This document shows positions 1,675 to 53,806 of a stretch of DNA of 64,000 nucleotides, piece after piece (positions within the stretch are counted from its first letter, which is position 1; each line of letters starts with the position of its first letter). The notes below the pieces were generated by a model, which saw only the letters and a list, made by a program, of their open reading frames with translations, had not been told where the DNA came from and did not search any database. The stretch is from Enterobacteria phage GiZh. The position numbers and the translations under genes were made by a program. The stretch is from sequence record NC_054903.1. One strand, written 5' to 3'.

Positions 1675-2639
1675 TGTATTCTTTAGAGGAATTTAATAAT
1701 CAAGCAATAAACGCAGATTTCCAACGTAATAATATGTTTAGCTGCGTTTTTGCAACAACTCCATCAACTAAAAGCTCTTCGTTGATAAGTTCAATTAGCA
1801 ACTTTTCTTATAATAACTTGGGCCTAAATTCAGATTGGTTAGGATTAACTCAAGGTGATATTAATCAGGGAATTACTACGCTAATTACAGCTGGCACACA
1901 AAAACTGATAAGAAAATCAGGGGTTAGTAAATATCTTATTGGTGCTATGAGTCAGCGTACTGTCCAGAGTTTATTAGGCTCATTTACAGTTGGTACATAT
2001 TTAATTGACTTCTTTAACATGGCATATAACTCATCTGGATTGATGATATACTCTGTAAAAATGCCAGAGAATAGATTATCTTATGAAACTGACTGGAACT
2101 ATAATTCTCCTAATATTCGTATAACCGGAAGAGAATTAGACCCTTTGGTTATTTCATTTAGAATGGATTCAGAAGCTTGTAACTATCGTGCAATGCAAGA
2201 CTGGGTTAACTCTGTTCAAGACCCAGTAACTGGATTGCGTGCTTTGCCACAAGATGTCGAGGCAGATATTCAGGTTAATCTTCATGCTCGTAATGGATTA
2301 CCTCATACTGCGGTGATGTTCACCGGATGCATTCCAGTGTCAGTGAGCGCTCCTGAGTTATCATATGATGGAGATAACCAAATAACTACATTTGATGTTA
2401 CTTTTGCGTATAGAGTCATGCAGGCTGGGTCGGTTGATAGACAAGCTGCGCTTGAGTGGCTTGAATCTGCTGCTATAAATGGCATTCAAAGTGTTCTCGG
2501 AAATAGTGGAGGTGTTACTGGATTATCTAATTCGCTTTCACGACTTAGTAGATTAGGAGGAACTGCGGGGAGCATTTCAAACATTAATACTATGACAGGA
2601 ATTGTCAATTCGCAAAGTAAAATATTAGGAGCAATATAA
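1674..2639 (+). CDS. 54: Baseplate tail tube initiator gp54
   Basis: 321 aa (T4 gp54 about 320 aa); start overlaps gp48 stop (TAATG); followed by hairpin terminator. Confidence 0.8.
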   Translation: MYSLEEFNNQAINADFQRNNMFSCVFATTPSTKSSSLISSISNFSYNNLGLNSDWLGLTQGDINQGITTLITAGTQKLIRKSGVSKYLIGAMSQRTVQSLLGSFTVGTYLIDFFNMAYNSSGLMIYSVKMPENRLSYETDWNYNSPNIRITGRELDPLVISFRMDSEACNYRAMQDWVNSVQDPVTGLRALPQDVEADIQVNLHARNGLPHTAVMFTGCIPVSVSAPELSYDGDNQITTFDVTFAYRVMQAGSVDRQAALEWLESAAINGIQSVLGNSGGVTGLSNSLSRLSRLGGTAGSISNINTMTGIVNSQSKILGAI

Positions 2640-2643
2640 CAAT

Positions 2644-2661
2644 GGGGACCTTTCGGTCCCC
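2644..2661 (+). terminator. Stem-loop ggggacc-tttc-ggtcccc followed by T-rich run, after gene 54
   Basis: Perfect 7-bp GC-rich inverted repeat then ATGTTTTTATTT; sits between convergent gene 54 and the 96-aa minus-strand ORF. Confidence 0.6.
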
Positions 2662-2667
2662 ATGTTT

Positions 2668-2958
2668 TTATTTACGGAATGAAATAAAAGCAGCAACTGA
2701 AGCAACTAAACTGTCTTCAATATAAACTTCAATTTTTACCGGAGCTTCTGACTCAAATTTACCTGTTACTACACCTTGGAAAATACTTTCAGTTTGTTCT
2801 GGCTTTGAAAAATTTTCAGAAGGAAAAATTCCGAACTTTTTATCTGTTCCAAAAATTTTAATAAATTCATCGTAAACTGCTTCATTAAAAGCATTATCAG
2901 CAGGAATAACGCCTTCAACTACAAGTTCTTGACCTAAAAAGCGCAAAGAAGATTTCAT
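2668..2958 (-). CDS. Hypothetical protein (96 aa), downstream of alt
   Basis: ORF with early-type promoter and GAGGA RBS upstream; no recognisable motif. Confidence 0.5.
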   Translation of the reverse strand: MKSSLRFLGQELVVEGVIPADNAFNEAVYDEFIKIFGTDKKFGIFPSENFSKPEQTESIFQGVVTGKFESEAPVKIEVYIEDSLVASVAAFISFRK

Positions 2959-2984
2959 TTTGTGTTCCTCATGTTATGTCAGTA

Positions 2985-3020
2985 AGATTACTATAACACA
3001 ACACGAGGGACTTGTAAACT
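2985..3020 (-). promoter_or_regulatory. T4 early-type promoter (-35 TTTACA, 17-bp spacer, -10 TATAGT on minus strand)
   Basis: Plus-strand tgtaaa at 3013-3018 and actata at 2990-2995; part of a 54-bp cassette nearly identical to 18248..18301. Confidence 0.5.
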
Positions 3021-5076
3021 ACATTTTGAACTTTTTAGACATTCCGTTAATGTTAACCAAAGAAGCTAAGATTTGAGAAACTTCGTTTTCCTCTTCTTTT
3101 GATTCTTCTACAAGGAATTGATTAAATCCAGCCATTGGACGAACTTCACCAGTTTCCATTAAATGGTCGCCATCATATACTGATTCTTCTAATTGTTCAG
3201 AAGGAGGAACGATTGTACCTTCGATTAGATACTTATTATAAGCAGTTTCTTTCATAAAGTACGTACTTACTTTATTAATCTTCAGTAAAATTCCACGTGG
3301 TAGAATAACTTCAGCTTCTGATGGAAATCCTGATAAATGACCTGGAACGATAACTTTGATTCGCTCAGCTCCTTTAATTACCATACCCACGCTAGTTTCA
3401 GCATCTTCATTAGCATATGTAGAATGACTACCCATATACATCAAATCTTCAGCATCAACAGAACCTTCTCCTTCACCAGAAAATACTGCGCCGGAATCAT
3501 CTAGAGCCATATAGTTTTTACCATGCTCACCGAAGATATTTGGTTTAAGCGATGTTGATACGAAGTTCTTGAAATAGAACATTTTATTTTCAATATTATG
3601 ACGTAAAGTTTTAAAGGTAACTTCTTGTCCACGGTAAAGTGTAGTTCCCGGAGGAAGAACTGATCCTTTGGCGAATGCAGAATCCAGCGTCTCGATGTGT
3701 TTAATAGCTCGTTCCATGTATTCTTCACGGGTAGAATCTGGTTTACCTAAAAGGAACGAGTTCATTTCAACATATGAATCTGCACAATAATCTTCAATTA
3801 CATCAGACTCAGCCTGAGTTAATCCTTTTGGAGTTACTTCAGTACTTGCATATTCATATGCCTGGGCAGCAGATTCATTAATCAATTTATAAATGCCATT
3901 CATGACAAATTGAATAATAGCTGTCTTTTCATCTGGTGTGGCTTTAGAACCTTTAACTAAATCATTGATAATTTTCTTAATAACATCAAAGCTATTAGAA
4001 ATATTAATATCAGCAAGATCGCTTAAAATTTTATCAGTTTTATAATCAAAGAATTCTTTATTCTTTAAATATTCTTGAGAACCTTGATATGTTATATCGC
4101 TCTGCAACTTGATGGATGGATCACGTAAACGTGCATGGGCTAATGCAATATGATTTCGGAAGTTTTCTAGTTCATAATCGCTAGATTTAAAACGAGAAGC
4201 ACTTCTCATACCACCGATAGCTCCTTTGCTGAAGTTTGAACCAATCTGAATAACGCCAGAGTTCATTGGTCCTTCTGCTTTATATACCGGAACTTTAGAT
4301 TCAAACTCTTGATATTTCTTGGCAGCGAAGCTATCACCCTGAAGTGAAGCATCGACAGTAGAATATTGAGCTTGTGCTGCTAATCGACGACTAATTTTAG
4401 TTTTCTGAATAACAGCTTGATCCGTGCGCTTATCATTTTCTAAGGCAATAGAAGCAGCAACAGCAACAGCTTTAGGAACAGCATTACCTGTTTTAACATC
4501 CACATAAACATCACCAACCTTTGATTCAACTTTTGTGAATAACTCAGTTGAAATAGGAGGTACACCTGGAATGTCTTCTAAATTGGCATTTTTACGGTAA
4601 ACCATAATATATGCATACTTTTTATCATAATCCCAGATTTCCTTTAAAAGAACATATCGACCTGCTCCTTTAGTACGTACTAAACGGTCAGCAATAACTT
4701 GCATTTGACGAGCTGCGCCATTTGTTTTACTTTTTAGTACGCGGAATAAGCATGCATCAATTTTATACTGTTTCATTGTTTGAAGAGCAGTATCAAAAAC
4801 GGCATTAATGACACCAATTGGATTTCCACCTAAGTTTTTAAGTTTAACTAATGATAGTTTCTCATTGACACCTATCATTACGATATGCATCATTTTATCG
4901 CCTGGCTTAACGTTTTTATTTGTATCACCACCAGAGGTGTATGTACAAAATCTAAATCCAGGAAGCACACTTTCTTCGCCGGCTTGAATAGCAAAAATTT
5001 GAGGTATTTTATGCTTAGGATTTAAGTTAACAACCGGCGCCGAAGCGCCGTCAAATAATTCTGTAATAAGTTCCAT
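3019..5076 (-). CDS. alt: Alt-like ADP-ribosyltransferase, paralogue A (685 aa)
   Basis: Length close to T4 Alt (682 aa); R-S-E ART motifs (YRGQ, FVSTSL, EAEVILPRG); position between 54 and DNA ligase. Confidence 0.8.
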   Translation of the reverse strand: MELITELFDGASAPVVNLNPKHKIPQIFAIQAGEESVLPGFRFCTYTSGGDTNKNVKPGDKMMHIVMIGVNEKLSLVKLKNLGGNPIGVINAVFDTALQTMKQYKIDACLFRVLKSKTNGAARQMQVIADRLVRTKGAGRYVLLKEIWDYDKKYAYIMVYRKNANLEDIPGVPPISTELFTKVESKVGDVYVDVKTGNAVPKAVAVAASIALENDKRTDQAVIQKTKISRRLAAQAQYSTVDASLQGDSFAAKKYQEFESKVPVYKAEGPMNSGVIQIGSNFSKGAIGGMRSASRFKSSDYELENFRNHIALAHARLRDPSIKLQSDITYQGSQEYLKNKEFFDYKTDKILSDLADINISNSFDVIKKIINDLVKGSKATPDEKTAIIQFVMNGIYKLINESAAQAYEYASTEVTPKGLTQAESDVIEDYCADSYVEMNSFLLGKPDSTREEYMERAIKHIETLDSAFAKGSVLPPGTTLYRGQEVTFKTLRHNIENKMFYFKNFVSTSLKPNIFGEHGKNYMALDDSGAVFSGEGEGSVDAEDLMYMGSHSTYANEDAETSVGMVIKGAERIKVIVPGHLSGFPSEAEVILPRGILLKINKVSTYFMKETAYNKYLIEGTIVPPSEQLEESVYDGDHLMETGEVRPMAGFNQFLVEESKEEENEVSQILASLVNINGMSKKFKM

Positions 5077-5079
5077 GAT

Positions 5080-7176
5080 TTATCCTTGAACGAACTTGTA
5101 AGGCATGTTTGTAATATCTATGCAAGACGCAATAATTCCAAGAGATGATTCTACTTTTTGTTTAACATTTGATGAAACAAATGATGCAAAGTCAACTCTG
5201 TCTTCTATTTCAATATCACCTGTCATTGCAACTACTTCGCCGGTTTCCATTAAATGGTCTCCGTCATAGATTACCGATTCGGTGAGTTCTTCGGTGGTCA
5301 TAACTTCAGCTTGAATGAGTTTTGTATTATTAGACGTGGTTCCGTCATTATTAGAAGCATCAGTTATTTTATTAACTTTGACCATCAATCCGCGCGGTAG
5401 AATAACTTCAGCTTCTGTTGCTATTCCGAGATTTCCTGGATATACAACATTAACTTTATGAGCTCCATCAATTGCCCATCCTATTTGAACTTTAACGTAT
5501 TCAGGATTTTCTTTATACGCTCTTATTTCGTTTGGATTAATAGTTATTCCTTCTTCATTTTTATCAACTGTCAATTCATTACGAGCTTCTGGTTCTAAAA
5601 GACCAATACCAGCATGTGTAATTCCAAAACGTCCAAAAATGATAGGAGTTAAAGAAGTAGATACAAAATTTCTGAAATAGAACACTTTATTTTTAACTAG
5701 TGCTTCGTATATAGGAGCAGTCATGCTTTGAGCACGATAAACTGTAATGCCTTCTGGTATACGGTCACCATTTTCAAAAGCTGAATCTAAGTTATTTATA
5801 GCAGATTCAATTTCTTTTTCACTCATTACATCATATCGTTCTGGATTGTAGCGTCCTAAAAGAAGATTATTGATGTCAGTATATCCTGAACCGCAATACT
5901 CTCTAATGCCACGCTTTTGTGATGGAGTATATTTAGAACCATCACGGGCAATAGTAATATCAATCATTGGACCTGCACCAATTCCAGAGAAACTATAAAT
6001 CATTCTTTTGAGGAATTTAGTTTTTGTCGCGTTCCAGGAATTTTTAGTTATTTCTTCCCAGACTTCATCTGGCTGTCCTTTACGTGTTTTATTATGTTTA
6101 TCAAGCCAATTATCTTTATATTCTTCAAAGAATTGATTAACAGCTGCTGCGTATTTCTCTAAACATTTTATTGAAGTAGTTGGTTCATTTTTAATCGCAT
6201 TAAGAATTACATCTTTAATTTTTTCAGAAACTTCATTAACCTCACTTTTTGAAAAGAATTTATAGTCATAATGAAGTTCATCTGCAGTTCCTTCAGCAAT
6301 AATTTTTGCTGCCTTAGTTTTAGAAGCTAATGAATTAATTCCAAGCTTCATTTCTTCTGCTTCGGGAATTAAAGGAGCCGTAGCAGGTTTATTGAAATTA
6401 GCTGCGGTAGATTCATACTTTTGGAATAATTCACTTTCAAATCTAGAAGATTCTAATGATTGACTTTGTGCAATTGCTCTACGGGAAATTTTAACTTTAA
6501 CGATTACAGCTTGGTCAGAACGTTTATCGTTTTCTTGCGCAATAGATGCAGCAATTGCCTCATTTTTAGTTACTTGAGCTCCAGTATCTTTATTGATATA
6601 AACATCACCAACCTTTGATTCAACTTTAGTAAAGAGCTCGGTACTAATTTCAGGAACTCCTGGAATGTCTTCTAATGATACATTTTTGCGATGTATAAGA
6701 ATATATGCATACTTTTTATCGTAATCCCAGAGTTCCTTAAGAAGGACGTATCTACCACCTGAACGACTACGGATAAGTCTATCAGCAATAAGTTGAATTT
6801 GTCGAGCTTGACCAGCAGTTTTAGACTTAAGAATACGGAGCATACAGGCATCAATTTTATACTGACGCATCGTTTGCATCGCAACAGTAAAAACTGAATT
6901 GATGTAATTAATTGGGCTTGGACCGAGACCTTTTAATTTAGCAATTGAACCTTTAGCAGTTAATGTAAAAGGAACAATATGCATCATTTTATCGCCCATC
7001 TTTAAATCGCGATTAGTATCACCTCCAGATGTATAGGTACACAAACGAAAGCCTGGTTGTTCAATTGCGTCATCAACATGAACTGAAAAAATTTGCGGTA
7101 TTTTCTTCTTTGGATTTAAGTTTGTAATCGGAAGAGTAGTATCTTCGTCAAATAATTCTGTAATGAGTTCCATCAT
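5080..7176 (-). CDS. Alt-like ADP-ribosyltransferase, paralogue B (698 aa)
   Basis: N-terminal 230 aa and C-terminal ART region align with paralogue A (MELITELFD..., YRAQ, FVSTSL, EAEVILPRG); central region divergent; TATAAATA late promoter upstream. Confidence 0.75.
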   Translation of the reverse strand: MMELITELFDEDTTLPITNLNPKKKIPQIFSVHVDDAIEQPGFRLCTYTSGGDTNRDLKMGDKMMHIVPFTLTAKGSIAKLKGLGPSPINYINSVFTVAMQTMRQYKIDACMLRILKSKTAGQARQIQLIADRLIRSRSGGRYVLLKELWDYDKKYAYILIHRKNVSLEDIPGVPEISTELFTKVESKVGDVYINKDTGAQVTKNEAIAASIAQENDKRSDQAVIVKVKISRRAIAQSQSLESSRFESELFQKYESTAANFNKPATAPLIPEAEEMKLGINSLASKTKAAKIIAEGTADELHYDYKFFSKSEVNEVSEKIKDVILNAIKNEPTTSIKCLEKYAAAVNQFFEEYKDNWLDKHNKTRKGQPDEVWEEITKNSWNATKTKFLKRMIYSFSGIGAGPMIDITIARDGSKYTPSQKRGIREYCGSGYTDINNLLLGRYNPERYDVMSEKEIESAINNLDSAFENGDRIPEGITVYRAQSMTAPIYEALVKNKVFYFRNFVSTSLTPIIFGRFGITHAGIGLLEPEARNELTVDKNEEGITINPNEIRAYKENPEYVKVQIGWAIDGAHKVNVVYPGNLGIATEAEVILPRGLMVKVNKITDASNNDGTTSNNTKLIQAEVMTTEELTESVIYDGDHLMETGEVVAMTGDIEIEDRVDFASFVSSNVKQKVESSLGIIASCIDITNMPYKFVQG

Positions 7177-9140: not shown

Positions 9141-9976
9141 TAGAATGCTCCTTGGAAAATATTATCACCACTAGTAGGTCTATTATACAAATACTCTATG
9201 CCACCGGGTTTAATATAGTTCCATGTCTGAAAAGGATGCGTCTGATATGGATGATATAGATTATAAGGATTAAATCCAGGAGTTCTCCAGGTAGTGTTCC
9301 AAGGAAAAGAATCGTTTTTAATCATCTTCTCAATTACATCTTTTATAACTTTTTCACTATCAAAACTTTCTTTATTTTCCTTCGATGGAAAAAGCTTATT
9401 CTCTACATCATTCCATGTATAAACTCGCTGCGCAGTTTTTGGAATATTGTCACGCTCTCCTCGAGCCATCCAATAAACAGGAACATTTAATATTTCACTT
9501 GCATGATCGCAATGGTGAGCGAGATCGTCAATATAACAAATCACGTTATATTTCTCTTTTGCCTTTTTGAACAACTCTTCTTTTGAAGAATCATGACCAC
9601 ACATCAGTACTTCTGAGAAGGCACCAGGAAAAAGAGCGTTCAAATTAAATTGACGATTCAGCAGAGCGTCAATAGAATCACCCAATGCTGTAACAGCTAC
9701 AAAATTATAATCTTCTTTTAATTTGTTAATTACACATAGAGCATCTTTATATGGAGACAAGTAACGAATAAAATCTGATCGATTATATTTTTCAATTAAC
9801 TTGACACCAAGTTCTTCATCGCAATTAAAGAGCTTACCAGGAGAAATAAATTTTTCGTCCTGAATCATTTTTAAAATATGTTCTAATGGAAGATTATATT
9901 TTTGGGCAAAATAAGGAAGACCTGATTGCCAGCTTAAACATACACCATCAATATCAGTCAAAATAGTAGGCTTCAT
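9140..9976 (-). CDS. HAD-superfamily hydrolase-like protein (278 aa)
   Basis: N-terminal motif ILTDIDGV matches HAD motif I (DxDG[TV]); start overlaps upstream stop. Confidence 0.55.
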   Translation of the reverse strand: MKPTILTDIDGVCLSWQSGLPYFAQKYNLPLEHILKMIQDEKFISPGKLFNCDEELGVKLIEKYNRSDFIRYLSPYKDALCVINKLKEDYNFVAVTALGDSIDALLNRQFNLNALFPGAFSEVLMCGHDSSKEELFKKAKEKYNVICYIDDLAHHCDHASEILNVPVYWMARGERDNIPKTAQRVYTWNDVENKLFPSKENKESFDSEKVIKDVIEKMIKNDSFPWNTTWRTPGFNPYNLYHPYQTHPFQTWNYIKPGGIEYLYNRPTSGDNIFQGAF

Positions 9977-10437
9977 AGAGAGTCTCTTAGTAGGTTTAAC
10001 ACATCAATAAATTCAGCTTCGGTTAGTATTGTATCATCTTTTGTTAGACCACTAGCCATGCTGTGCTTCAAAACTTTTCCTTTTGAGGCTTGTAAGGCAT
10101 CACGAAACCCCTTGTTTTGAATCGCTGCTTCAAAATATGCATTTGTGTATAATTCTTTCCACGCCGGGGAGTATCTTGAAAACGGAACTCCAATCCAGAA
10201 GAGGGTCCCACGGTCCTGAGCTCTAGCATAAGACCTTCCAGCTTGTTGGGCGGCAAGCCCGGATAACCCAAATATACGACGTTGTTGTTCAACATTTTTC
10301 ACCTTACACCCTTGGAGGAATCCTTCAAGACCTCCAAATTGAATACCATCCATAACGAAAGGCCATTGGGCGAAATTACTTAATGCACATGATGGCCACC
10401 TAAAATTGCTTCTAATCTCTAACTCAGACATTTTCAA
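9973..10437 (-). CDS. NADAR / YbiA-like (DUF1768) protein (154 aa)
   Basis: Signature F..WPSCALSNFAQWPFVMDGIQF..LEGFLQGCK resembles YbiA/NADAR motif FSNFxxWP..DG..F.S.EHYFQAQK as I recall it. Confidence 0.55.
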   Translation of the reverse strand: MKMSELEIRSNFRWPSCALSNFAQWPFVMDGIQFGGLEGFLQGCKVKNVEQQRRIFGLSGLAAQQAGRSYARAQDRGTLFWIGVPFSRYSPAWKELYTNAYFEAAIQNKGFRDALQASKGKVLKHSMASGLTKDDTILTEAEFIDVLNLLRDSL

Positions 10438-10630
10438 TGCTTATAATTTCAACATCAGCCCAATGACCATAGCAAGGAAGACGAAATTCAACTGGCCAGT
10501 TAGGGTCCTTTTCTAATATAATAGACTCAACTCGTGGTTCTTCATGTTCATCAGTATATGGATTTTTATCTGTTACTTTATATGTGACCTTAATGTACTG
10601 AATTCCAAAAATCTTATTAATTATATTCAT
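10424..10630 (-). CDS. Hypothetical protein (68 aa)
   Basis: Small ORF in early operon, overlapping neighbours. Confidence 0.45.
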   Translation of the reverse strand: MNIINKIFGIQYIKVTYKVTDKNPYTDEHEEPRVESIILEKDPNWPVEFRLPCYGHWADVEIISIENV

Positions 10631-15476: not shown

Positions 15477-16869
<1,393 letters not shown>

Positions 16870-16873
<4 letters not shown>

Positions 16874-17106
16874 TTATTTTTCTCAACCAATGATTGAATA
16901 TAATCATGTAGGTCTTTAGATGCTTTACCCCACTTATTTTGATATTCATTTTTGAGATTAGCACGTGATTGAGCTAATAAAACATCATTAGTTGGAGGTA
17001 AAGATTCTAACCGCTGAATCTGGCGTCCGTAAATCATTGCAGCCATCTCGGATTCATAAATCAATCCTTTGAGATGTTCAAATTGATGCCATGAAATCAT
17101 TTGCAT
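16870..17106 (-). CDS. Hypothetical protein (78 aa)
   Basis: ORF in pseT-alc interval. Confidence 0.5.
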
Positions 17107-17396
17107 TTATCCTCTTTTAACTCTTGACGATAATAACATATCATAGTTTTCTGATCATGTACATATCGTTTTACATCATTAAGCCAAATACGAAATTCCT
17201 GAGAATCTTCAAATGGCATACCGACCCAAGCTTTACCATCAATAACTTTAACTTGCCAAGATAGTTTAGCTTCGTCATATGACTTTATTTGCACAGGCCA
17301 ATTAGGATGAACTGTTTCTTTCTTTACTTCTAGAGGCTTTGTCGAACAACCAACTAGAAGACCAATAGATAATATTACTGCTGATAGTTTAATCAT
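17097..17396 (-). CDS. Predicted lipoprotein (99 aa)
   Basis: N-terminal signal peptide MIKLSAVILSIGLLVGC with lipobox L-V-G-C. Confidence 0.55.
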   Translation of the reverse strand: MIKLSAVILSIGLLVGCSTKPLEVKKETVHPNWPVQIKSYDEAKLSWQVKVIDGKAWVGMPFEDSQEFRIWLNDVKRYVHDQKTMICYYRQELKEDKCK

Positions 17397-17746
17397 TTAG
17401 AAAGGTCCTGGATGTCTTCTGCGAACTTGTTGAAGGAGTTGTTAATTTGTTTTTCAACCAATCCTGGCTTACGAGCCACCACATCCGCCTTCTTTGCATC
17501 TTTGCGCAGTTTTTCATTTTCACGCTCAATAGCAGCGATTGCCTCACGATTTTTAGTATTCATCGCATCAATATAATTATACTGAATTCGCAAATTATTT
17601 AATGCTAAAGCGTTTTCATTGGCTGTTTTTGTAATTTCAGTAACTGATGTTTCTAATCTTTCTACCTTATTTTTTAAAATAATAGATGTTCCGCCCAATG
17701 CTATTACAATTAATAGCAAACCTGCTGTCGTATTACTTAATTGCAT
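17393..17746 (-). CDS. Predicted membrane-anchored coiled-coil protein (117 aa)
   Basis: N-terminal hydrophobic helix (AGLLLIVIALGGTSIIL) followed by charged helical region. Confidence 0.5.
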   Translation of the reverse strand: MQLSNTTAGLLLIVIALGGTSIILKNKVERLETSVTEITKTANENALALNNLRIQYNYIDAMNTKNREAIAAIERENEKLRKDAKKADVVARKPGLVEKQINNSFNKFAEDIQDLSK

Positions 17747-18243
17747 AAAGTTTTAATAACCTCTATAATATCGTCTTGAGAAAGACCGTTAATTAAAATA
17801 TGATGTTCAGCTGGAGATTTAGAAATTTTAAAGCATGCCTCAACATCTTCTGCCATATCCGATGCACTACGATTTGGATTACTAATTCCAAGACGATGCT
17901 TTCCAGTCAAAGGATTAACGATGATATAGCATTTGCAGCTATTGATATGAACATTGGGCTGAGTCTGATTAATGAACACTTCGCAATCATACTTAGCGAG
18001 TTGATTTTCTAAAAAGACTTTCATCTCTTCAACCGCATCAGGAAGCATATCACGGGCTTGCTCAAGACGACGATTTCGATATTCTTTAATGGTCGTTTTC
18101 CGCTTGACTTGCTTAGCTAAATCTTTCTTAAGATCGGTGATATATCCAACTCGACGATTTCCTTTGAATACAGAAATCCCATCTGTAGTATCACCGTATG
18201 CTTCAACGACCATTTCAGTAGTAATAAGCTGCAAATCCATCAT
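17737..18243 (-). CDS. alc: Alc (inhibitor of host transcription on cytosine DNA)
   Basis: 167-168 aa as in T4 Alc; position between pseT cluster and rnlA. Confidence 0.8.
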   Translation of the reverse strand: MMDLQLITTEMVVEAYGDTTDGISVFKGNRRVGYITDLKKDLAKQVKRKTTIKEYRNRRLEQARDMLPDAVEEMKVFLENQLAKYDCEVFINQTQPNVHINSCKCYIIVNPLTGKHRLGISNPNRSASDMAEDVEACFKISKSPAEHHILINGLSQDDIIEVIKTLCN

Positions 18244-18263
18244 AAAGTCCTCATGTTATGTCA

Positions 18264-18302
18264 GTAAGACTACTATAACACAACACGAGGGACTTGTAAA
18301 CA
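18264..18302 (-). promoter_or_regulatory. T4 early-type promoter and leader upstream of alc
   Basis: gtaaac at 18296-18301 (rc TTTAC on minus), -10 TATAGT-like; 54-bp cassette nearly identical to 2966..3019. Confidence 0.5.
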
Positions 18303-18304
18303 GC

Positions 18305-19892
<1,588 letters not shown>

Positions 19893-19919
19893 AATAAAAT
19901 GGGCCTTGCGGCCCACTCC

Positions 19920-21098
19920 TTAAAAGTATTTTTTAAAACTCATCATAACTTTATCATCAACATCATTATCAATCTGTGCAACAAGGTAAGATGACAGTTC
20001 TACTTCTTGTGGCGCGGATTGAACATTATCAGAATTAAGATATTCACGAATCCAAGGATATGGATGTTTAACCGGAGCATCGGTAATTGGGCATGGAAGA
20101 CCGCACTGTTTCATACGAGATACAGTTAAGTAATCAATAAAGCTCCACATGCTATTTGTATTTAATCCAGGAACATCACCATCTTTAAATAAATGAACTG
20201 CCCAGTCTTTTTCCTGGCGGTTAACTTCCATGAAAATATCAACTGCTTCTTGTTCACACTCTTTAGCAATTTTAACCCATTCATCGCCGTCTGTTCCAAG
20301 CTGAAGCTGACGAATAATATATTGGGTGCCTTTAAGGTGAAGCTGTTCATCGCGTGCAATGAACTTCATAATCTTGGCATTACCTTCCATGATTTCCATG
20401 TTCTTATGGAAGTTAAATGTACATGCGAAAGATACATAAAAACGAATAGCTTCCAATGCATTGATTACATGCAAACAGAGGTAAAGAGATTTCATTAGCT
20501 CACGCTTCCAATATGTCTCATGCTCAATAGCATCTTCAATAACGTCTTCGTCTGCATTAATTTCTTTTTGGTATTCGATATCAGCTTTAGCGTTTTCCAA
20601 ATAACGAGTTTTAATCAGAACATCATCATAATAACGTCCAATGGATTCAGCACGTTTCATAATAGCTTCATCTAATACAATTTCATCAAATACCTTCGAT
20701 GGATCAGTATAAAGATTTCGCATGATATGAGTATATGAACGACTGTGAATGGTTTCACTAAAAGTCCATGTAGCAACCCATGTATCAAGGCTTGGGTCTG
20801 AAATCAATGACATAAGTACAGCAGACGGTGCACGACCCTGAATGCTATCTAGAAGTGATTGATACTTCAGATTATTAGTAAAAATATTCTGCTGATATTG
20901 AGGAAGCTTATTAAACTGTGCAGCATCCATCATTAAGTTTACTTCTTCAGGACGCCAGAAAAATGACAACTGCTTTTCGGTTAAATCTTCAAAAACTTTA
21001 TGACGTTGAATATCATAACGCGCAATACCAAGACCTGAACCAAAAAACATAGGTTCTTTTAAAACATCAACTGGATTTGTATTAAAAACTGTGCTCAT
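19920..21098 (-). CDS. nrdB: Ribonucleotide reductase small subunit (class Ia), uninterrupted
   Basis: 392 aa contiguous ORF of the expected size; no intron-sized interruption. Confidence 0.9.
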   Translation of the reverse strand: MSTVFNTNPVDVLKEPMFFGSGLGIARYDIQRHKVFEDLTEKQLSFFWRPEEVNLMMDAAQFNKLPQYQQNIFTNNLKYQSLLDSIQGRAPSAVLMSLISDPSLDTWVATWTFSETIHSRSYTHIMRNLYTDPSKVFDEIVLDEAIMKRAESIGRYYDDVLIKTRYLENAKADIEYQKEINADEDVIEDAIEHETYWKRELMKSLYLCLHVINALEAIRFYVSFACTFNFHKNMEIMEGNAKIMKFIARDEQLHLKGTQYIIRQLQLGTDGDEWVKIAKECEQEAVDIFMEVNRQEKDWAVHLFKDGDVPGLNTNSMWSFIDYLTVSRMKQCGLPCPITDAPVKHPYPWIREYLNSDNVQSAPQEVELSSYLVAQIDNDVDDKVMMSFKKYF

Positions 21099-21149
21099 AA
21101 ATTTTCCGCTTAGTTAATAGTTGGTGACTCGTCCGTGAGTCAAATTATA

Positions 21150-23414
21150 TCATAATTTACAGGATGAACAATCTTCAGCTTTTGGAGTTTCTATTTCATA
21201 ATCATCAGTACCAGAACCATCACGGGTATTATGATAATAGAAATTTTTTCCGCCAAAATACCAAAAATACAAAAGGTCATCAATCATTATTGACATTGGA
21301 ACCTTGCCTTTAGGGAAGATTTGGGGGTCATAGTATGTATTCGCCGAAGCTGATTGACAAACCCATTTCAGCATAATAGCTACCTGCGTAAGATAAGGTT
21401 TATTACCTTTCTTAGCTAATTTCCATGTATAATCATAAAGGTCTATGTTATGCTCAATATTGGGCACGACTTGATTAAAGGAGCCCTCTTTTGATTCTTT
21501 AACAGAGACTGGTCCACGTGGAGGCTCGATACCGTTTGTACTGTTAGAAACTTGGGAAGATGACTCACATGGCATAAGTGCTGATAATGTGCTATTACGG
21601 ATGCCAAAGAGCTTAAGGTCTTCCCGCAGCGACGACCAGTCACAAACGTATTTTGGAGCTGCGATTTGGTCAATCTTTTTATTGTACCAGTCGATAGGTA
21701 ATTCGCCTCGAGACCAACGAGTGTCTGAATAATATTCGCAAGGTCCTTTTTCTTTGGCGAGCTTAATGGATGCTTTAATGAGTCCATACTGTAATCTCTC
21801 AAATAGTTCATGTGTTAAATCGTTAGCATCTTCATAAGAAGCAAAGTTACTTGCCAGCCAAGCTGCATAGTTAGTAACACCTACACCAAGGTTTCGACGC
21901 TTTTTAGCTTTTTCTGCTTCAGGAACTGGATATCCTTGGTAATCCAAAAGATTATCAAGAGCACGAACTTGAACTTCTGCTAATTCATTAATTTTATCTT
22001 GGTCTTGCCAATCGAAGTTATCCAGCACAAATGCAGATAACGTGCACAATCCAATTTCAGCATCAGGACTATTCACATCATTTGTTGGAATAGCAATTTC
22101 ACAGCACAAGTTACTCTGACGAATAGGTGCCTTTTCACGAATAAACGGAGTGTAGTTATTCGTATTATCAATGAACTGCACATAAATCCTTGCTGTTCCT
22201 GAACGTTCAGTCATGAGCAATTCAAATAGTTCACGGGCTTTAATACGCTTTTTGCGAATATTAGGGTCTTTTTCTGCTGCTTCGTATAATTCACGGAAAC
22301 GGTCTTGGTCTTTAAAATAAGAATAATAAAGCTCTCCACCCATTTCGTGTGGACTGAACAAAGTAATGTAATCGTTCTTTCCGAATCGTTCCATCATCAA
22401 ATCATTCAGTTGAACACCATAATCCATATGACGGATACGGTTTTCTTCTACGCCTTTGTTATTTTTCAAAACGAGAAGATTTTCAACTTCCAAATGCCAA
22501 ATAGGATAATAAGCAGTAGCAGCGCCGCCACGAATTCCACCCTGTGAACATGATTTAACTGCAGTCTGAAAATGTTTCCAAAAAGGAATAACACCAGTAT
22601 GACGTACTTCACCCATGCCAATCTTAGAACCTTCGGCACGAATCATACCAACGTTAATACCAATTCCAGCACGTTTGGAGATATATTCAACAATTGAAGC
22701 GGAAGCCTTGTTGATAGACTTTAATGAATCACCTGCCTCAATAACAACGCATGAACTAAACTGTCTAGTCGGAGTACGACAACCAGCCATAATAGGAGTT
22801 GGCAGTGAAATCTGTCGAGTAGATACTGCTTCATAAAAACGGATAACATGTTTTAATCTATCAACAGGTTCATCTTGATGCAGTGCCATTCCAATAGCCA
22901 TAAATGCAAACTGTGGAGTTTCATAAATTTGACCAGTGGTTTTATCTTTAACTAGATATTTTTCTTTTAATTGCATCGCCCCGGAATAAGTAAATTCCAT
23001 ATCCCGTTCGTGCTTAATTTTTGATTCTAAAAATGTAATTTCTTCTGCTGAATATTTTGACAATAATTCAGGGTCGTATTTACCTTCATTTACGCAATAA
23101 GAAATATGGTCAATAAATGAACGTGGTTCATATTGTCCGTAAACATGCTTACGAAGAGCGAACATTAAACAACGTGCAGCTACATATTGATAATCAGGCT
23201 CTTCAACCGAAATAGAATTCGCAGCAGCCTTAATGACAATAGTCTGAATATCATCAGTTGTCATTCCATCACGGAGATAAGATTTAATATTTTCATATAA
23301 TTCATAAGGATCTACTGATGTTCCTTCAGCTGCCCAAGATAAAACTTTAATAATTTTTTGTGGGTCAAAGCTCTGAGAAACACCACTACTTTTGATAACA
23401 TTAATTAATTGCAT
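21150..23414 (-). CDS. nrdA: Ribonucleotide reductase large subunit (class Ia)
   Basis: 754 aa as in T4 NrdA; active-site NLCCEIA and C-terminal CSSCKL cysteine pair. Confidence 0.95.
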   Translation of the reverse strand: MQLINVIKSSGVSQSFDPQKIIKVLSWAAEGTSVDPYELYENIKSYLRDGMTTDDIQTIVIKAAANSISVEEPDYQYVAARCLMFALRKHVYGQYEPRSFIDHISYCVNEGKYDPELLSKYSAEEITFLESKIKHERDMEFTYSGAMQLKEKYLVKDKTTGQIYETPQFAFMAIGMALHQDEPVDRLKHVIRFYEAVSTRQISLPTPIMAGCRTPTRQFSSCVVIEAGDSLKSINKASASIVEYISKRAGIGINVGMIRAEGSKIGMGEVRHTGVIPFWKHFQTAVKSCSQGGIRGGAATAYYPIWHLEVENLLVLKNNKGVEENRIRHMDYGVQLNDLMMERFGKNDYITLFSPHEMGGELYYSYFKDQDRFRELYEAAEKDPNIRKKRIKARELFELLMTERSGTARIYVQFIDNTNNYTPFIREKAPIRQSNLCCEIAIPTNDVNSPDAEIGLCTLSAFVLDNFDWQDQDKINELAEVQVRALDNLLDYQGYPVPEAEKAKKRRNLGVGVTNYAAWLASNFASYEDANDLTHELFERLQYGLIKASIKLAKEKGPCEYYSDTRWSRGELPIDWYNKKIDQIAAPKYVCDWSSLREDLKLFGIRNSTLSALMPCESSSQVSNSTNGIEPPRGPVSVKESKEGSFNQVVPNIEHNIDLYDYTWKLAKKGNKPYLTQVAIMLKWVCQSASANTYYDPQIFPKGKVPMSIMIDDLLYFWYFGGKNFYYHNTRDGSGTDDYEIETPKAEDCSSCKL

Positions 23415-23731
23415 AAGTCCTCAACTTGAAAATCGTCTTTAAACAATCGGTTAACTATATGAGCTATTATATCACCATGACACGGCTTTGGTTTACATGT
23501 GCATCCTAGCCTCATTCCACGTAAAGGCTCTAAATGTGCTTTAGTTATTTCTCCGGATTTAATTCGACGTATAAAATCTTTTTTGAATAATTCAATGGCA
23601 GCCTCCCGGCTGCCAGCATCTTTACCGACGTAATTTCCCCAAAATGTACCACGGTGAATATTAACATCAAAGTCGGATTTATATTTATTCACTACCCGGC
23701 ATAGACGGCCCACGCTGGAATAATTCGTCAT
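23405..23731 (-). CDS. Hypothetical protein (108 aa)
   Basis: ORF overlapping nrdA start; Cys/His-containing ([12 protein letters not shown]). Confidence 0.5.
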
Positions 23732-23960
23732 ATTGTTTTTCCGTTAATACAGTAATATCATAGTAACAATCGGAAGAAGTTTTAACTGTGGAAATTTTAT
23801 TATCAAAATACTCACGAGTCATTTTATGAGTATAGTATTTTTTACCATAAATGGTAATAGGCTGTTCTGGTCCTGGAACTTCTAACTCGCTTGGGTTAGG
23901 AAGTGTAAAAAGAACAACGCCAGAAGTATCTTTAAATCGTAAAATCATATATCCTCGCAA
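23685..23960 (-). CDS. Hypothetical protein (91 aa)
   Basis: ORF between td and nrdA. Confidence 0.5.
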
Positions 23961-23968
23961 TAATAAAA

Positions 23969-24829
23969 TTACACCGCCATCTTTCCTTTAATAGGAGGGT
24001 GTGATTCATAGTTGTTAAGAACAAAATTATGTGGCTTTGCGAATTGACTCAGCCAAAATACCTGCGATTCTGTGTCCCATTCATCAAATTCATCTGGAAA
24101 TTTTAATTGCAATTCGCATAAATCCATAGGTTCACGACGTAAAATTTCTTTACATTGTTCTACGTGATTCATATAGATATGAGTATTACCACCAGAAAAT
24201 ATCAAATCTCCGGGAATAAGATTACACATCTTAGCTACAATATGCGTCAAGGCAGCGTACGAGGCAATGTTGAATGGCAAGCCCAAGAAAACATCTACAC
24301 TTCTTTGGTACCACTGCAAATCCAAATAGCCATTACGCACATTAAACTGATAGAACATATGACAAGGCGGTAATGCCATATATTTAAGTTCAGCTGGATT
24401 CCACGCAGAAACAATTTGACGCCTATCATTCGGCAGTTTTTTAATACGATCAATAACTTCTACAATTTGGTCTACACCGCCAAAATCACGCCATTGTTTT
24501 CCATAAATTGGACCAAGTTCACCGCTATGGTATCCTAAATCTTTTGCCTGATTTTCGTAATTTTCATCCCAAACTGTTTTGCCTTGGATTAATGAATCAT
24601 GCTGAATTAATCGTAAATCATTGACATTTGTGCTTCCTGACAAAAACCATATTAACTCAGCAATGCATGCATTCCAGGCGAGCTTTTTAGTTGTTACTGC
24701 AGGAAAACCTTTGGTTAAATCCCAACGCAATTTAGTACCGAACAAAGCAATTGTTCCTGTGCCTGTTCGGTCATCGGTTTCATAACCATTTTCAAAAATG
24801 TCTTTAATTAAATCTTGGTATTGTTTCAT
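23969..24829 (-). CDS. td: Thymidylate synthase, uninterrupted
   Basis: 286 aa contiguous; active-site PCH ([12 protein letters not shown]); no group I intron present. Confidence 0.95.
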
Positions 24830-24873
24830 TTAGTACCTTATATAAATTATAATACATTTTATGAAGCTAATAA

Positions 24874-25233
24874 TTAATACGGTTTAGCATCAAATTTTCT
24901 CTCAATTTCAGGCGTGAAATATAATTCTTTACCGCGTTTGGAAAAACGACCAATAATATGATAATTATTCTCATCAAACGTGATATTGCCGATATCCATA
25001 GCTTTCAACCAAATATCGATATTTCTGTCAAGCTTTATATCAAAATTCCAATACGGAGAACTATTACCAAAAATACTGCAAGCGGATTCAGTGAAACAAC
25101 TGCTATAAATCTTGTCTTTAGGAACTACTAATTGATAGACACCTTTAATAAACTGAGGACCCTGCCACTTTGGCTGTTTCGCGTCTTTTTCTAATAAAAT
25201 AGGGTAATAATTAAAATTCATATTTTCCGCCAC
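24874..25233 (-). CDS. Hypothetical protein (119 aa) between frd and td
   Basis: Complete ORF with no recognisable motif, in the interval where T4 frd and td abut as I recall. Confidence 0.5.
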   Translation of the reverse strand: MAENMNFNYYPILLEKDAKQPKWQGPQFIKGVYQLVVPKDKIYSSCFTESACSIFGNSSPYWNFDIKLDRNIDIWLKAMDIGNITFDENNYHIIGRFSKRGKELYFTPEIERKFDAKPY

Positions 25234-25241
25234 GCGTTATT

Positions 25242-26068
<827 letters not shown>

Positions 26069-28698: not shown

Positions 28699-28797
28699 TT
28701 TTATTTCCTTTTTAATTTAATTAACAGTTGGTGCTATGACGATGTATGACCTCATAGCTGGTCAGTGAGATAATTATAATCTATTTATAATAAGCAA

Positions 28798-51728: not shown

Positions 51729-52001
51729 TTAATTCATATTACGTTTAATAACTTCAGCAACTTCTAGTAGTTCATCTTTAGTTGCGGTGTCGGATTGAAT
51801 TTTATCTCTAATATCTTTAAAGCGGTTTTTAAATTCTTCGGCTTCTCCCATATCGAAAAAGCGTTGAATGATTCTATATTCTCGATGAACTGCTTTATCA
51901 AAAAGTTCTAAATTTACTCTATATGATTTCATTTCAATATCCTCATTTGCCCAATTAATTATACCACATCCTTGTGTAAAGTAAACTACTGGCTCATCCA
52001 T
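51729..52001 (-). CDS. Hypothetical protein (90 aa)
   Basis: ORF between gene 39 and rIIA. Confidence 0.5.
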
Positions 52002-53806
52002 TCTTTACGAAGGTCAGCATTATCTCCCATGAGCATTTCAAAAAGCTCTTTCCAATTCTCAGGAAGTTTAACAACATCATATACTGGATTTTGAATCATC
52101 TCACGATATTCAGATTTTTCCAAAGAGCCAAGTCCCTTAATATAACGGATGCTATGTTTAGGTAGAGCATCTTTGGCACTCTCATATTCAGCGACTGTAT
52201 AAAACCATTCTTGTTTTTTACCGACCTGAGCGATGATTACAGGAGTTTTGACAAAGCGAATTCGTCCTTGCTCAAACAATTCTGGCCAATTACTAAAAAA
52301 TCCGAGCAGAGAAGGATAAATGCTTCCTAGACCATCATGGTCAGCATCAGTCATAATAGCAATATTGCGATAATTCAAGTTTTCAGCTTTTTCACCAAGA
52401 ACTAGACCAGTGATTGCGCAAATATCAAATAGTTCTTTGTTTTTAAGCATATCGGCATATGACATACCCCAGCTATTAAGAACTTTACCGCGCAATGGAT
52501 AACCACCATGAAGTTCTTTATCGCGAACATCAATAAGATATCCGATAGCTGAATCACCCTCAGTCAAGAACAATGTAGTGTCAGCATCTTTACCGCAAAG
52601 ATTCGCTTTAATATGTTTATGAACCTTAGCTTTAGAAGCCTTTTTAGCTGCTTTAGTTTCTGCTGCTTTTTCTGCCGCCAATTTACGAGCCAAAGCAGCT
52701 TCAATAATCGGCATCAGAATTGCTTCATTATTTAGAATAGCGCGTGAAATCTTTTTAGCGTCAAGTTGAATATGACTACGAATTTCGCCAAATGGAGAAG
52801 TCAAACGCTCTTTAGTTTGAGAATCAAATCGCATGTTTTTCATATCACGAACAAACATAACGATAGTCAAACATTCTTTAACGCGTGCTTTAGTTACATC
52901 AATTTTGAACTTACGTTTGATTTGTGGAATAAGGTCTTCACAAATATCATCCATAACACAGTCAATGTGATGGCCACCATTCTTAGTATGAATGTTATTG
53001 ACGTATGTTAATTGACGAAAACCATCCGGTGAACGACCAACCGCAATAGAACAATTTTCTTGTTCTTGAACGATAGCATGTTCATCATATTGGCGTGCGT
53101 ATTTCTTAAAATTACCCTGAACCTTTTTACCATTAAAGGTAAATTGAATATCAGGATAAACAACAGCAAGTGTTTGGAGACGATCTAGTGTAATGTCAAG
53201 ATAAACTTGGGACAGCTCATTAGTTTCAAATGACATAAAATCAGGAATGAAAGTAACACGGGTTCCTTTCCATTTTCCAGGAATATCTTCCCATGATTTA
53301 TTTTCCATGCCGTTTGAACAACGAACTACAATATTATTTTGACCATCACCAGTTTCACCGACAAACATCACAGAAAAAATGTTTGTCAAACTAGAACCAA
53401 CACCATTCATACCACCGGTGACGCGTTCTTTATCATCACCGAAGTTACCACCTGCTTTTGGAATAGTCCACGCAGCAACAGGACCAGGAATTTCTTCACC
53501 GGTAGGTGTTTTAACCATCGCCTGTGGAATACCACGACCGTTATCTTCAACTGTTACTTGATTATTTTTAATAGTAACATTAATTTTATTCGCGAATTTA
53601 AACTTAGTACGAATACCTTCATCTACTGAGTTATCGATAATTTCATCAATAAGCTTAACAAGACCAGGTACATACTGAACACTTTCCCATTTACCAAACA
53701 GAAAGCGCTCATGCATTTCATTAGCTGAAGAGCCAATGTACATGCCGCTACGCTTTTTGATATGTTCAATATCGCTCAGAATTTTAATTTCATTCTTAAT
53801 CATCAC
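51986..53806 (-). CDS. 39: DNA topoisomerase II large subunit, unsplit gene 39 (ATPase plus Toprim)
   Basis: 606 aa; GHKL ATPase motifs (EDNGRGIP, GGMNGVGSS) and complete Toprim (LFLTEGDSA ... IMTDADHDG) in one ORF; C-terminal part corresponds to T4 gp60. Confidence 0.9.
   Translation of the reverse strand: MMIKNEIKILSDIEHIKKRSGMYIGSSANEMHERFLFGKWESVQYVPGLVKLIDEIIDNSVDEGIRTKFKFANKINVTIKNNQVTVEDNGRGIPQAMVKTPTGEEIPGPVAAWTIPKAGGNFGDDKERVTGGMNGVGSSLTNIFSVMFVGETGDGQNNIVVRCSNGMENKSWEDIPGKWKGTRVTFIPDFMSFETNELSQVYLDITLDRLQTLAVVYPDIQFTFNGKKVQGNFKKYARQYDEHAIVQEQENCSIAVGRSPDGFRQLTYVNNIHTKNGGHHIDCVMDDICEDLIPQIKRKFKIDVTKARVKECLTIVMFVRDMKNMRFDSQTKERLTSPFGEIRSHIQLDAKKISRAILNNEAILMPIIEAALARKLAAEKAAETKAAKKASKAKVHKHIKANLCGKDADTTLFLTEGDSAIGYLIDVRDKELHGGYPLRGKVLNSWGMSYADMLKNKELFDICAITGLVLGEKAENLNYRNIAIMTDADHDGLGSIYPSLLGFFSNWPELFEQGRIRFVKTPVIIAQVGKKQEWFYTVAEYESAKDALPKHSIRYIKGLGSLEKSEYREMIQNPVYDVVKLPENWKELFEMLMGDNADLRKEWMSQ

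Follow-up and report, generated by a model that had tools for sequence, protein, structure and literature searches.

In phage T4, the genes td (thymidylate synthase) and nrdB (small subunit of ribonucleotide reductase) are interrupted by group I introns of 1017 and 598 nt, respectively. A related phage in which both genes appear uninterrupted raises the question of whether it carries genuine intron-minus alleles and whether these can still serve as targets of the homing endonucleases I-TevI and I-TevIII. The locus in question lies in the genome of Enterobacteria phage GiZh (NC_054903.1), of which a stretch of 64,000 nucleotides, referred to as the window, was analysed. The window phage belongs to the genus Tequatrovirus, with Shigella phage Sf22 as its closest relative (98.4% over 5.9 kb, or ~1.6% divergence across this region).

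The gene order frd-td-nrdA.2-nrdA.1-nrdA-nrdB-denA is that of the standard T-even nucleotide-precursor cluster (Table 1). As the initial annotation had proposed, td and nrdB are each one contiguous ORF of full length, colinear with the spliced T4 genes. The td product matches PF00303 over its full length (positions 1-266 of 266, E 3.5e-95, 318.6 bits), and NrdB matches PF00268 at positions 9-271 of 281 (E 5e-37, 128.2 bits), both above the curated cut-off. In blastn comparisons with T4 (NC_000866), the T4 exons of both genes abut in the window, and the two introns are lacking precisely where they would be inserted (24281/24280 and 20423/20422), which bears out the earlier claim that intron-sized insertions are lacking. 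While td is 861 nt long in the window and in its spliced T4 form, NrdB has 392 amino acids vs 388 in T4. The extra four residues belong to a variable region at residues ~162-200 and do not stem from an insertion element. Despite its GIY-YIG fold, denA is the conserved host-DNA nuclease and no homing endonuclease. The phages Sf22, ESh31 and Aplg8 match the window in gene order and gene lengths (861 and 1179 nt), both genes being intronless, and their td is 99.4-99.5% identical to the window td, including an identical B-type patch (see below).

Table 1. Features of the td-nrdB region and of its empty homing sites in the window (all on the minus strand).
Feature	Position	Strand	Remarks
td, thymidylate synthase, uninterrupted	23969..24829	-	single ORF, 286 aa; PF00303
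Empty td intron insertion site	24280..24281	-	exon I ends at 24281, exon II starts at 24280; ...TTGGGT / CTACCG...; from T4 exon-boundary alignment
I-TevI homing site equivalent, 38 bp (-27..+11)	24270..24307	-	CAAAGAAGTGTAGATGTTTTCTTGGGC / TTGCCATTCAA; site definition from PMC2988022
Cleavage motif CNNNG	24303..24307	-	CAAAG (T4 CAACG); -27..-23; critical C and G retained
B-haplotype recombination patch	24237..24313	-	identical to teqsoen from -33 to +44; 22 differences from PE37-type backbone, -28 to +36
td codons 235-268, allelic block of equal length	24026..24127	-	nearly every residue unlike T4; common to PE37, RB32 and EO1
nrdA.1 (DUF4326) and nrdA.2 (DUF5496)	23405..23960	-	small ORFs between nrdA and td; T4-like arrangement
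nrdA, ribonucleotide reductase large subunit	21150..23414	-	754 aa, T4 length
nrdA-nrdB intergenic spacer	21099..21149	-	51 bp, empty site; T4 has nrdB.1 and mobE there (~700 bp)
nrdB, ribonucleotide reductase small subunit, uninterrupted	19920..21098	-	single ORF, 392 aa; PF00268
Proposed MobE target in nrdB 5' region	20943..20985	-	polymorphic nt 114-131 (20985-20968) and FFWRPEE block (20963-20943)
I-TevIII cleavage positions -14/-16	20436..20438	-	positions from PMC1865063
Empty nrdB intron insertion site	20422..20423	-	...TTCGCAT / GTACAT...; from alignment to spliced T4 nrdB
denA, endonuclease II	19482..19916	-	GIY-YIG fold

Searches for introns and their endonucleases gave the same picture. 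Homing-endonuclease homologues were not found in the window by tblastn with T4 I-TevI, I-TevIII, MobE, nrdB.1, SegG, MobA, SegF and two other phage homing endonucleases; the best match (E 0.02) is a chance match within an alt paralogue, and the absence of I-TevI- or I-TevIII-like ORFs noted earlier is upheld. Among the ORFs absent from T4, Pfam revealed nothing endonuclease-like. The covariance model of group I introns (RF00028) had no match in positions 19000-26000 at E<=1 and none across the whole window at E<=0.01, while the same E-value scan picks up both T4 introns (E 9e-8 and 2e-6). An Rfam scan at the gathering threshold was also empty for the window, but it was discarded as uninformative because it also failed to detect the td and nrdB introns in T4 itself. 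The nrdA-nrdB interval lacks the 700-bp T4 segment comprising nrdB.1 and mobE, and neither segG nor the gene 60/mobA insertion occurs in the window. The two genes are genuine genomic intron-minus alleles, which would never have had group I introns or would have lost them since; thymidylate synthase and the ribonucleotide reductase small subunit would be made without any splicing.

Intron-free td and nrdB are common among T-even phages, and the alleles seen here are present in phages sequenced before. In a collection without the window phage itself, the td intron was found in 197 records (at >=80% coverage) and the nrdB intron in 118, out of roughly 520 related records (the base being the 523 that cover >=80% of the region). 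The intron-free state is the majority state among the relatives of T4, and T4 is the outlier. Table 5 of PMC2993671 gives no intron-encoded endonuclease for T2, RB14, RB15, RB18, RB26, RB32 and RB51. A scan of IMG/VR for td relatives returned mainly other genera and few close relatives, and added little on population-level questions.

The 38-bp equivalent of the I-TevI site is identical to T4 at 28 positions, and the ten differences are all synonymous. The initial annotation had placed several synonymous differences around the td exon junction at 24230-24290; these are real, but this range, which takes in the insertion site and the exon II side, misses the cleavage-site half of the site (24303-24308). 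Over the wider stretch from -33 to +36, 21 of the 69 bp differ, the only amino-acid changes being T193A and V195T at +28 to +36. The site occupies the same codon position as the T4 td deltaI site (.../LPFN), in which CNNNG also lies at -27 to -23. Positions C1 and G5 of this motif are critical for I-TevI (PMC5009752); literature searches for direct data on the CAAAG version gave nothing relevant. Of the 20 bp of the primary binding region, which has the insertion site at its centre, 14 are identical to T4. I-TevI binds its own operator, with 15 of 20 bp identical, as tightly as the homing site (PMC2988022), and it is tolerant of many substitutions (PMC2988022, PMC5009752). Four of the changes in the window fall on spacer positions 1-4, adjoining the cleavage motif. 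Tev-TALEN activity is lowered by substitutions at spacer position 2 and by C3T at position 3, and the RB32 td substrate, which has CAAAGAAGT in common with the window and three further private changes, is cut less well. Finally, the last base of exon I is C in the window vs T in every intron-bearing allele examined, and it would need co-conversion to T for the intron to splice.

The substitutions at the td site are not scattered drift, but make up a single short recombination patch, 64-78 bp long, from a common alternative haplotype. Of 47 differences from PE37, 22 are clustered within 69 bp (hypergeometric p = 8.6e-14), a count reached in none of 5000 permutations. Identity to PE37 is 96.8% outside the patch and 68% inside, whereas it is 81% outside and 100% inside for teqsoen, and 75% outside and 94-96% inside for Mosigvirus td. 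The td backbone outside the patch is PE37/RB32-like, and the closest whole-region relatives, PE37, TH09 and teqhad, have an A-type td site. The exact patch haplotype, referred to as B-type, occurs in 212 records (59 at >=99% identity), and its carriers include RB14, teqsoen and Mosigvirus. RB32 has an even shorter B-type stretch (-24 to +12), which nearly coincides with the 38-bp site. Since the td alleles were picked by similarity at this very site, the sample is uninformative on the clustering of breakpoints there versus elsewhere. Homologous recombination with a phage of the B site haplotype (RB14/teqsoen/Mosigvirus type) would have brought the patch in.

An intron-bearing counterpart of this haplotype is found in phage U5. 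The td sequences of U5 (AY262155) and TuIa, which reportedly come from a 2004 study by Sandegren and Sjoberg in J Biol Chem, said to be the key comparative paper, were used directly in the comparison. Compared with the intronless teqsoen, U5 td has 17 differences over the 861 exon positions; nine of them make up a T4-type block (-28 to +3), located between the cleavage site and the intron. Outside this block, its teqsoen-like exons carry the window's B-type site haplotype; unlike the window, U5 has a 1016-nt td intron with I-TevI and the T4-type tract from the cleavage site to the insertion site. By its sequence, U5 corresponds to the window's site haplotype with an intron and a minimal co-conversion tract. 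This pattern suggests natural invasion of the td site haplotype, which probably still serves as a target. Alternatively, the pattern could reflect subsequent recombination in both flanks of the intron, without direct invasion; such flank shuffling does occur, as seen in phage 236Ecol005PP. Since the haplotype keeps the critical C and G and appears intron-invaded in U5, it is reasonable to regard the td site as a natural homing target. During co-infection with a phage that carries the intron, the td site would most likely still be bound and cut, because the patch keeps the CNNNG motif, and it would then gain the intron plus a short co-converted stretch.

The nrdB site is identical to T4 from -31 to -6 and carries substitutions at -5, -2 and +5, the A at +5 being private to the window within the alleles sampled. 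The identity extends to the T4 nrdB deltaIn substrate of I-TevIII (from RB3), cleavage positions included. With its uninterrupted gene and its conserved cleavage-position sequence, the window nrdB is an intron-minus, candidate I-TevIII (RB3-type) target. Furthermore, nt 91-165 of nrdB are identical to T2, including nt 114-131 and the FFWRPEE block, compared with 92.5% identity in the rest of the exon I part. MobE-dependent nicks have been mapped to T2 nrdB nt 122-126, in T2 and a T2 plasmid clone only (PMC2790892), and T2, like the window, has no mobE between nrdA and nrdB. Because its nrdB 5' region is the T2-type sequence that is nicked in a MobE-dependent manner, the window phage should be open to entry of mobE and of the nrdB intron.

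We thus favour, with good confidence, an intron-free T-even cluster with an imported B-type patch and empty sites that would be susceptible to homing. Its anatomy, mosaic structure and population frequencies are matters of observation, while susceptibility to cleavage is predicted from the sites themselves. An unlikely alternative is that the patch is a scar. It could have been left when an intron-bearing ancestor lost its intron through crossovers with a B-type intronless phage near the insertion site, or when I-TevI cut an intronless ancestor of A type and the break was repaired from a B-type intronless genome in the same cell. The patch (-28 to +36) brackets the insertion site, its left edge (-34 to -28) is situated slightly upstream of the -23/-25 cleavage site, as is that of the U5 co-conversion tract, and the A-type sites of PE37, TH09 and teqhad would fit such an ancestry. 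However, ordinary homologous exchange between phages in one cell would look no different, the Rfam E-value scans found no intron remnant in the window, and published I-TevI co-conversion is biased toward exon I (PMC2988022), yet the patch reaches mainly into exon II.

It also appears improbable that the patch represents an I-TevI escape allele, whose synonymous changes would have been retained, and propagated through exchange of short patches, because they reduce cleavage and thereby shield phages without the intron against its invasion and against marker exclusion. The crowding of changes in the recognition sequence, with none nearby, the sensitivity of spacer positions 2 and 3, the poorer cleavage of the related RB32 site and the near match of the RB32 stretch to the 38-bp site all speak for it. 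Nevertheless, C1 and G5 are retained, the enzyme tolerates many substitutions, and U5 combines the same haplotype with an intron and a minimal co-conversion tract. B-type exon II flanks also occur in other intron-bearing phages, a td intron variant with 90% identity is present in Mosigvirus AV116 while intronless Mosigviruses have the B-type site, and td has further mosaic blocks that bear no relation to the site. Haplotype frequencies of intron-bearing and intronless alleles were rejected as a test of resistance; they are uninformative because co-conversion puts donor flanks in place of those of the recipient. A related proposal, for which we see only a slim chance, is that the 64-78 bp patch and the shorter one of RB32 reflect endonuclease-driven exchange among intronless phages, either as a partly resistant mini-cassette or by repair of I-TevI breaks from intronless templates. 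That the contiguous ORFs are an artefact, namely a cDNA-like spliced sequence or an intron-collapsing assembly, is hardly credible and found no support, given that the same uninterrupted arrangement occurs in hundreds of independently sequenced phages (490 records cover >=80% of td in one place), that the exon sequence on either side represents a haplotype of its own and not joined T4 exons, and that splicing cannot account for the additional lack of mobE, segG and the gene 60/mobA insertion.

The value of the case is modest: it provides a clean natural example, in which at least two synonymous haplotypes of the I-TevI target occur and exchange very short segments by recombination. Having both the mapped T2-type sequence for MobE and unoccupied intron sites, the window phage would be a convenient recipient for homing crosses. 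If exchange among intronless phages were indeed driven by the homing endonuclease, its influence on the diversity of target sites would extend to genomes that never gain the intron.

The window comes from a T4-like phage, with Shigella phage Sf22 (Tequatrovirus) as the top match (98.4% over 19400-25300); at least 80% of this interval is covered by 523 phage records. The genes from 18305 to 25850 all lie on the minus strand, in the order known from T4 (see table).

Genes around td and nrdB in the window
Gene	Position	Strand	Product or remark
rnlA	18305-19465	-	
denA	19482-19916	-	GIY-YIG nuclease DenA (Pfam)
nrdB	19920-21098	-	ribonucleotide reductase subunit, full length (Pfam)
nrdA	21150-23414	-	ribonucleotide reductase subunit, full length (Pfam)
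nrdA.1, nrdA.2	23405-23960	-	
td	23969-24829	-	thymidylate synthase, full length (Pfam)
small extra ORF	24874-25233	-	absent from T4
frd	25242-25850	-	DHFR (Pfam)

The small extra ORF (115-119 aa, no Pfam match) is encoded by a cassette of about 408 bp between frd and td (24824-25248), with a copy of a 9-bp direct repeat, TAAATGAAA, on either side (25248-25240 and 24832-24824). T4 carries one copy of the repeat at its frd/td overlap, the empty site of the cassette, and the ORF is also found in T2, RB14, RB32, Sf22 and PE37, being annotated in RB32 as 'flanked by 9 bp repeat'. Elsewhere in the window, two full-length alt-like paralogues stand in tandem on the minus strand (685 aa, 3019-5076; 698 aa, 5080-7176), whereas in T4 a single alt gene is accompanied by the short remnants alt.-1, alt.-2 and alt.-3.

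Both td and nrdB are uninterrupted, as the initial annotation had proposed. By blastn, T4 td exon I corresponds to 24282-24832 and T4 nrdA through td exon II to 21154-24277, T4 nrdB exon I corresponds to 20425-21098 and nrdB exon II with downstream sequence to 16867-20422, and in each gene the exons abut. The insertion sites, placed from the T4 exon boundaries, lie between 24281 and 24280 (td) and between 20423 and 20422 (nrdB), and alignment uncovered no intron at either, the 1017-nt td and 598-nt nrdB introns of T4 being missing to the base. The predicted lack of ORFs resembling I-TevI or I-TevIII, the homing endonucleases of these introns, was likewise borne out, as tblastn of the 64 kb with I-TevI, I-TevIII, MobE, SegG, MobA, SegF and two other phage homing endonucleases gave no match. 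An E-value-based Rfam scan, which recovers the two introns of T4 as positive controls (E 9e-8 and 2e-6), was negative for group I introns both over 19000-26000 and over the full window. The scan at the Rfam gathering threshold was also empty, yet it misses the T4 introns too and was not counted: the threshold is 50 bits, and the T4 introns (4459-5056 and 9545-10561) reach only 35.7 and 40.3 bits on account of the ORFs inserted in them, so that a negative gathering scan is uninformative on ORF-bearing phage introns.

Related insertions of T4 are also absent. A 51-bp spacer replaces the nrdB.1 and mobE segment of about 700 bp between T4 nrdA and nrdB; segG, a GIY-YIG homing endonuclease gene between genes 32 and 59 in T4, is absent at 28761-28797; and gene 39 (topoisomerase large subunit, 51986-53806) is a single 606-aa ORF in which about 64 bp (52321-52386) stand where T4 has a 1.1-kb insertion (T4 2793-3911) carrying the 50-nt translational bypass of gene 60, 60.1 and a mobA remnant. 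All five endonuclease-associated insertions of T4 within these 64 kb (I-TevI, I-TevIII, mobE, mobA, segG) are thus missing.

The absence of introns from td and nrdB is the ordinary state and already known. At a coverage of at least 80%, the T4 td intron is present in 197 records and the T4 nrdB intron in 118; 143 records match the nrdB.1 and mobE segment over any part of its length. T2, RB14, RB15, RB18, RB26, RB32 and RB51 have no intron-encoded endonuclease in a table of T4-related genomes (PMC2993671), and T4 has been termed the outlier in a review (PMC2988022). Taken together, these minority counts and published accounts make the intron-free state the norm.

I-TevI recognizes about 38 bp, binds through its DNA-binding domain a 20-bp region with the insertion site at its centre, and cuts 23 and 25 nt upstream of that site, at a CNNNG motif (PMC2988022). 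The homing site (insertion point marked by a slash) reads CAAAGAAGTGTAGATGTTTTCTTGGGC/TTGCCATTCAA in the window and CAACGCTCAGTAGATGTTTTCTTGGGT/CTACCGTTTAA in T4. Inspection of this sequence upheld the suspected synonymous differences: 10 of 38 positions are changed, all synonymously, with both critical bases of the motif, C and G, retained and 14 of the 20 bp of the binding region the same as in T4. From -33 to +36 relative to the insertion site, the window departs from T4 at 21 of 69 bp; upstream of -28 there is a single difference in 116 bp (at -124), and from +37 to +68 there is none.

On sequence comparison, these substitutions make up a single recombination patch, a short import of a common haplotype, here called B and shared with RB14, teqsoen and Mosigvirus. 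Within it, identity to the window is 100% for teqsoen, 98.6% for RB14 and 94-96% for two Mosigviruses, and only 68-81% for PE37, RB32 and EO1; over the remainder of td, teqsoen falls to 81% and the Mosigviruses to 75%, while outside the patch PE37, RB32 and EO1 reach 96.8%, 97.7% and 95.8%. Nearly half of the differences from PE37 (22 of 47) fall within 69 bp (hypergeometric p = 8.6e-14; count reached in 0 of 5000 permutations). Identity to teqsoen is unbroken from -33 to +44 and the PE37-type differences span -28 to +36, giving a patch length of 64-78 bp. Haplotype B occurs in 212 records at a coverage of at least 80% (59 of them at 99% identity or more) and the PE37-type haplotype A in 138; a PE37-like backbone with the B patch, at 99.4% identity or more, was seen only in Sf22, ESh31 and Aplg8. 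The patch could alternatively be the trace of a repaired break or of a lost intron; the 14 relatives from which td was aligned were picked by similarity at the homing site, which makes the alignment no test for breakpoint clustering. In RB32 the B-type stretch is shorter still (-24 to +12), almost the extent of the 38-bp I-TevI site, and td carries three private substitutions (-16, -13, -10). Codons 235-268 of td (24026-24127) form another mosaic block of equal length, with 31 of 34 residues unlike T4; almost no residues are shared with T4 or T2, the block matches PE37, RB32 and EO1, and teqsoen, RB14 and Mosigvirus have a third version.

Around the nrdB insertion site, substitutions relative to T4 are confined to -5, -2 and +5; the stretch from -31 to -6 is the same, and with it the positions cleaved by I-TevIII, 14 and 16 bp upstream. 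Identity to T4 is 84% for the exon I part and 97% for exon II with downstream sequence, the exon I divergence stemming from a variable region with indels (aa 162-200) and from the 5' region, where T4 has polymorphisms of its own. The former (20499-20615), whose indels relative to T4 go with a NrdB length of 392 vs 388 aa, lies 75-190 nt upstream of the nrdB insertion site. MobE-dependent nicks have been mapped in T2 nrdB at nt 122-126, and a bipartite target of nt 114-131 plus the FFWRPEE block has been proposed (PMC2790892). Since the window equals T2 over nt 91-165 and has the 51-bp spacer, it would combine the mapped sensitive allele with an empty mobE site.

The B site is probably still an I-TevI target, on three lines of indirect evidence. 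Motif-plus-spacer sequences taken from a number of natural phage td genes serve as cleavage substrates, that of RB32, which has CAAAGAAGT as in the window plus three more changes, being cut less well (PMC4065259), and the I-TevI operator, with 15 of 20 bp the same as in the homing site, is bound with equal affinity (PMC2988022). Between intron-bearing U5 and intronless teqsoen, the td exons show only 17 differences over 861 positions; nine of them (-28, -24, -22 to -19, -1, +1, +3) make up a T4-type block located exactly between cleavage site and intron, the pattern that a minimal co-conversion tract would leave after homing into a B-type allele. Position -1 is T in every intron-bearing allele examined and C in the window; placed between cut and intron, this base would be co-converted. 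B-type exon II flanks also stand beside introns in Pu-Krd-SF6, TuIa and Mosigvirus AV116, with the caveat that flanks are shuffled independently of homing as well, as in Escherichia phage 236Ecol005PP, whose 254-nt td intron (1249-1496) lacks the I-TevI ORF and joins a B-type exon I to an A-type exon II. That intron matches T4 intron nt 1-84 and 860-1017, and several other phages, among them HMD-9 and Pinarejo, have similar partial matches. In AV116 (coordinates 781-1416 and 2063-3072), the td intron is only 90% identical to that of T4, as are those of TuIa, JM10, JM17 and AV115, and a separate HNH-type homing endonuclease gene adjoins the end of nrdA. The B patch might also be an escape allele; what is seen in natural phages speaks for lasting susceptibility and against immunity, and with the retained C and G of the motif and the intron in the B-type td of U5, the reading of this td allele as a natural homing target is reasonable.
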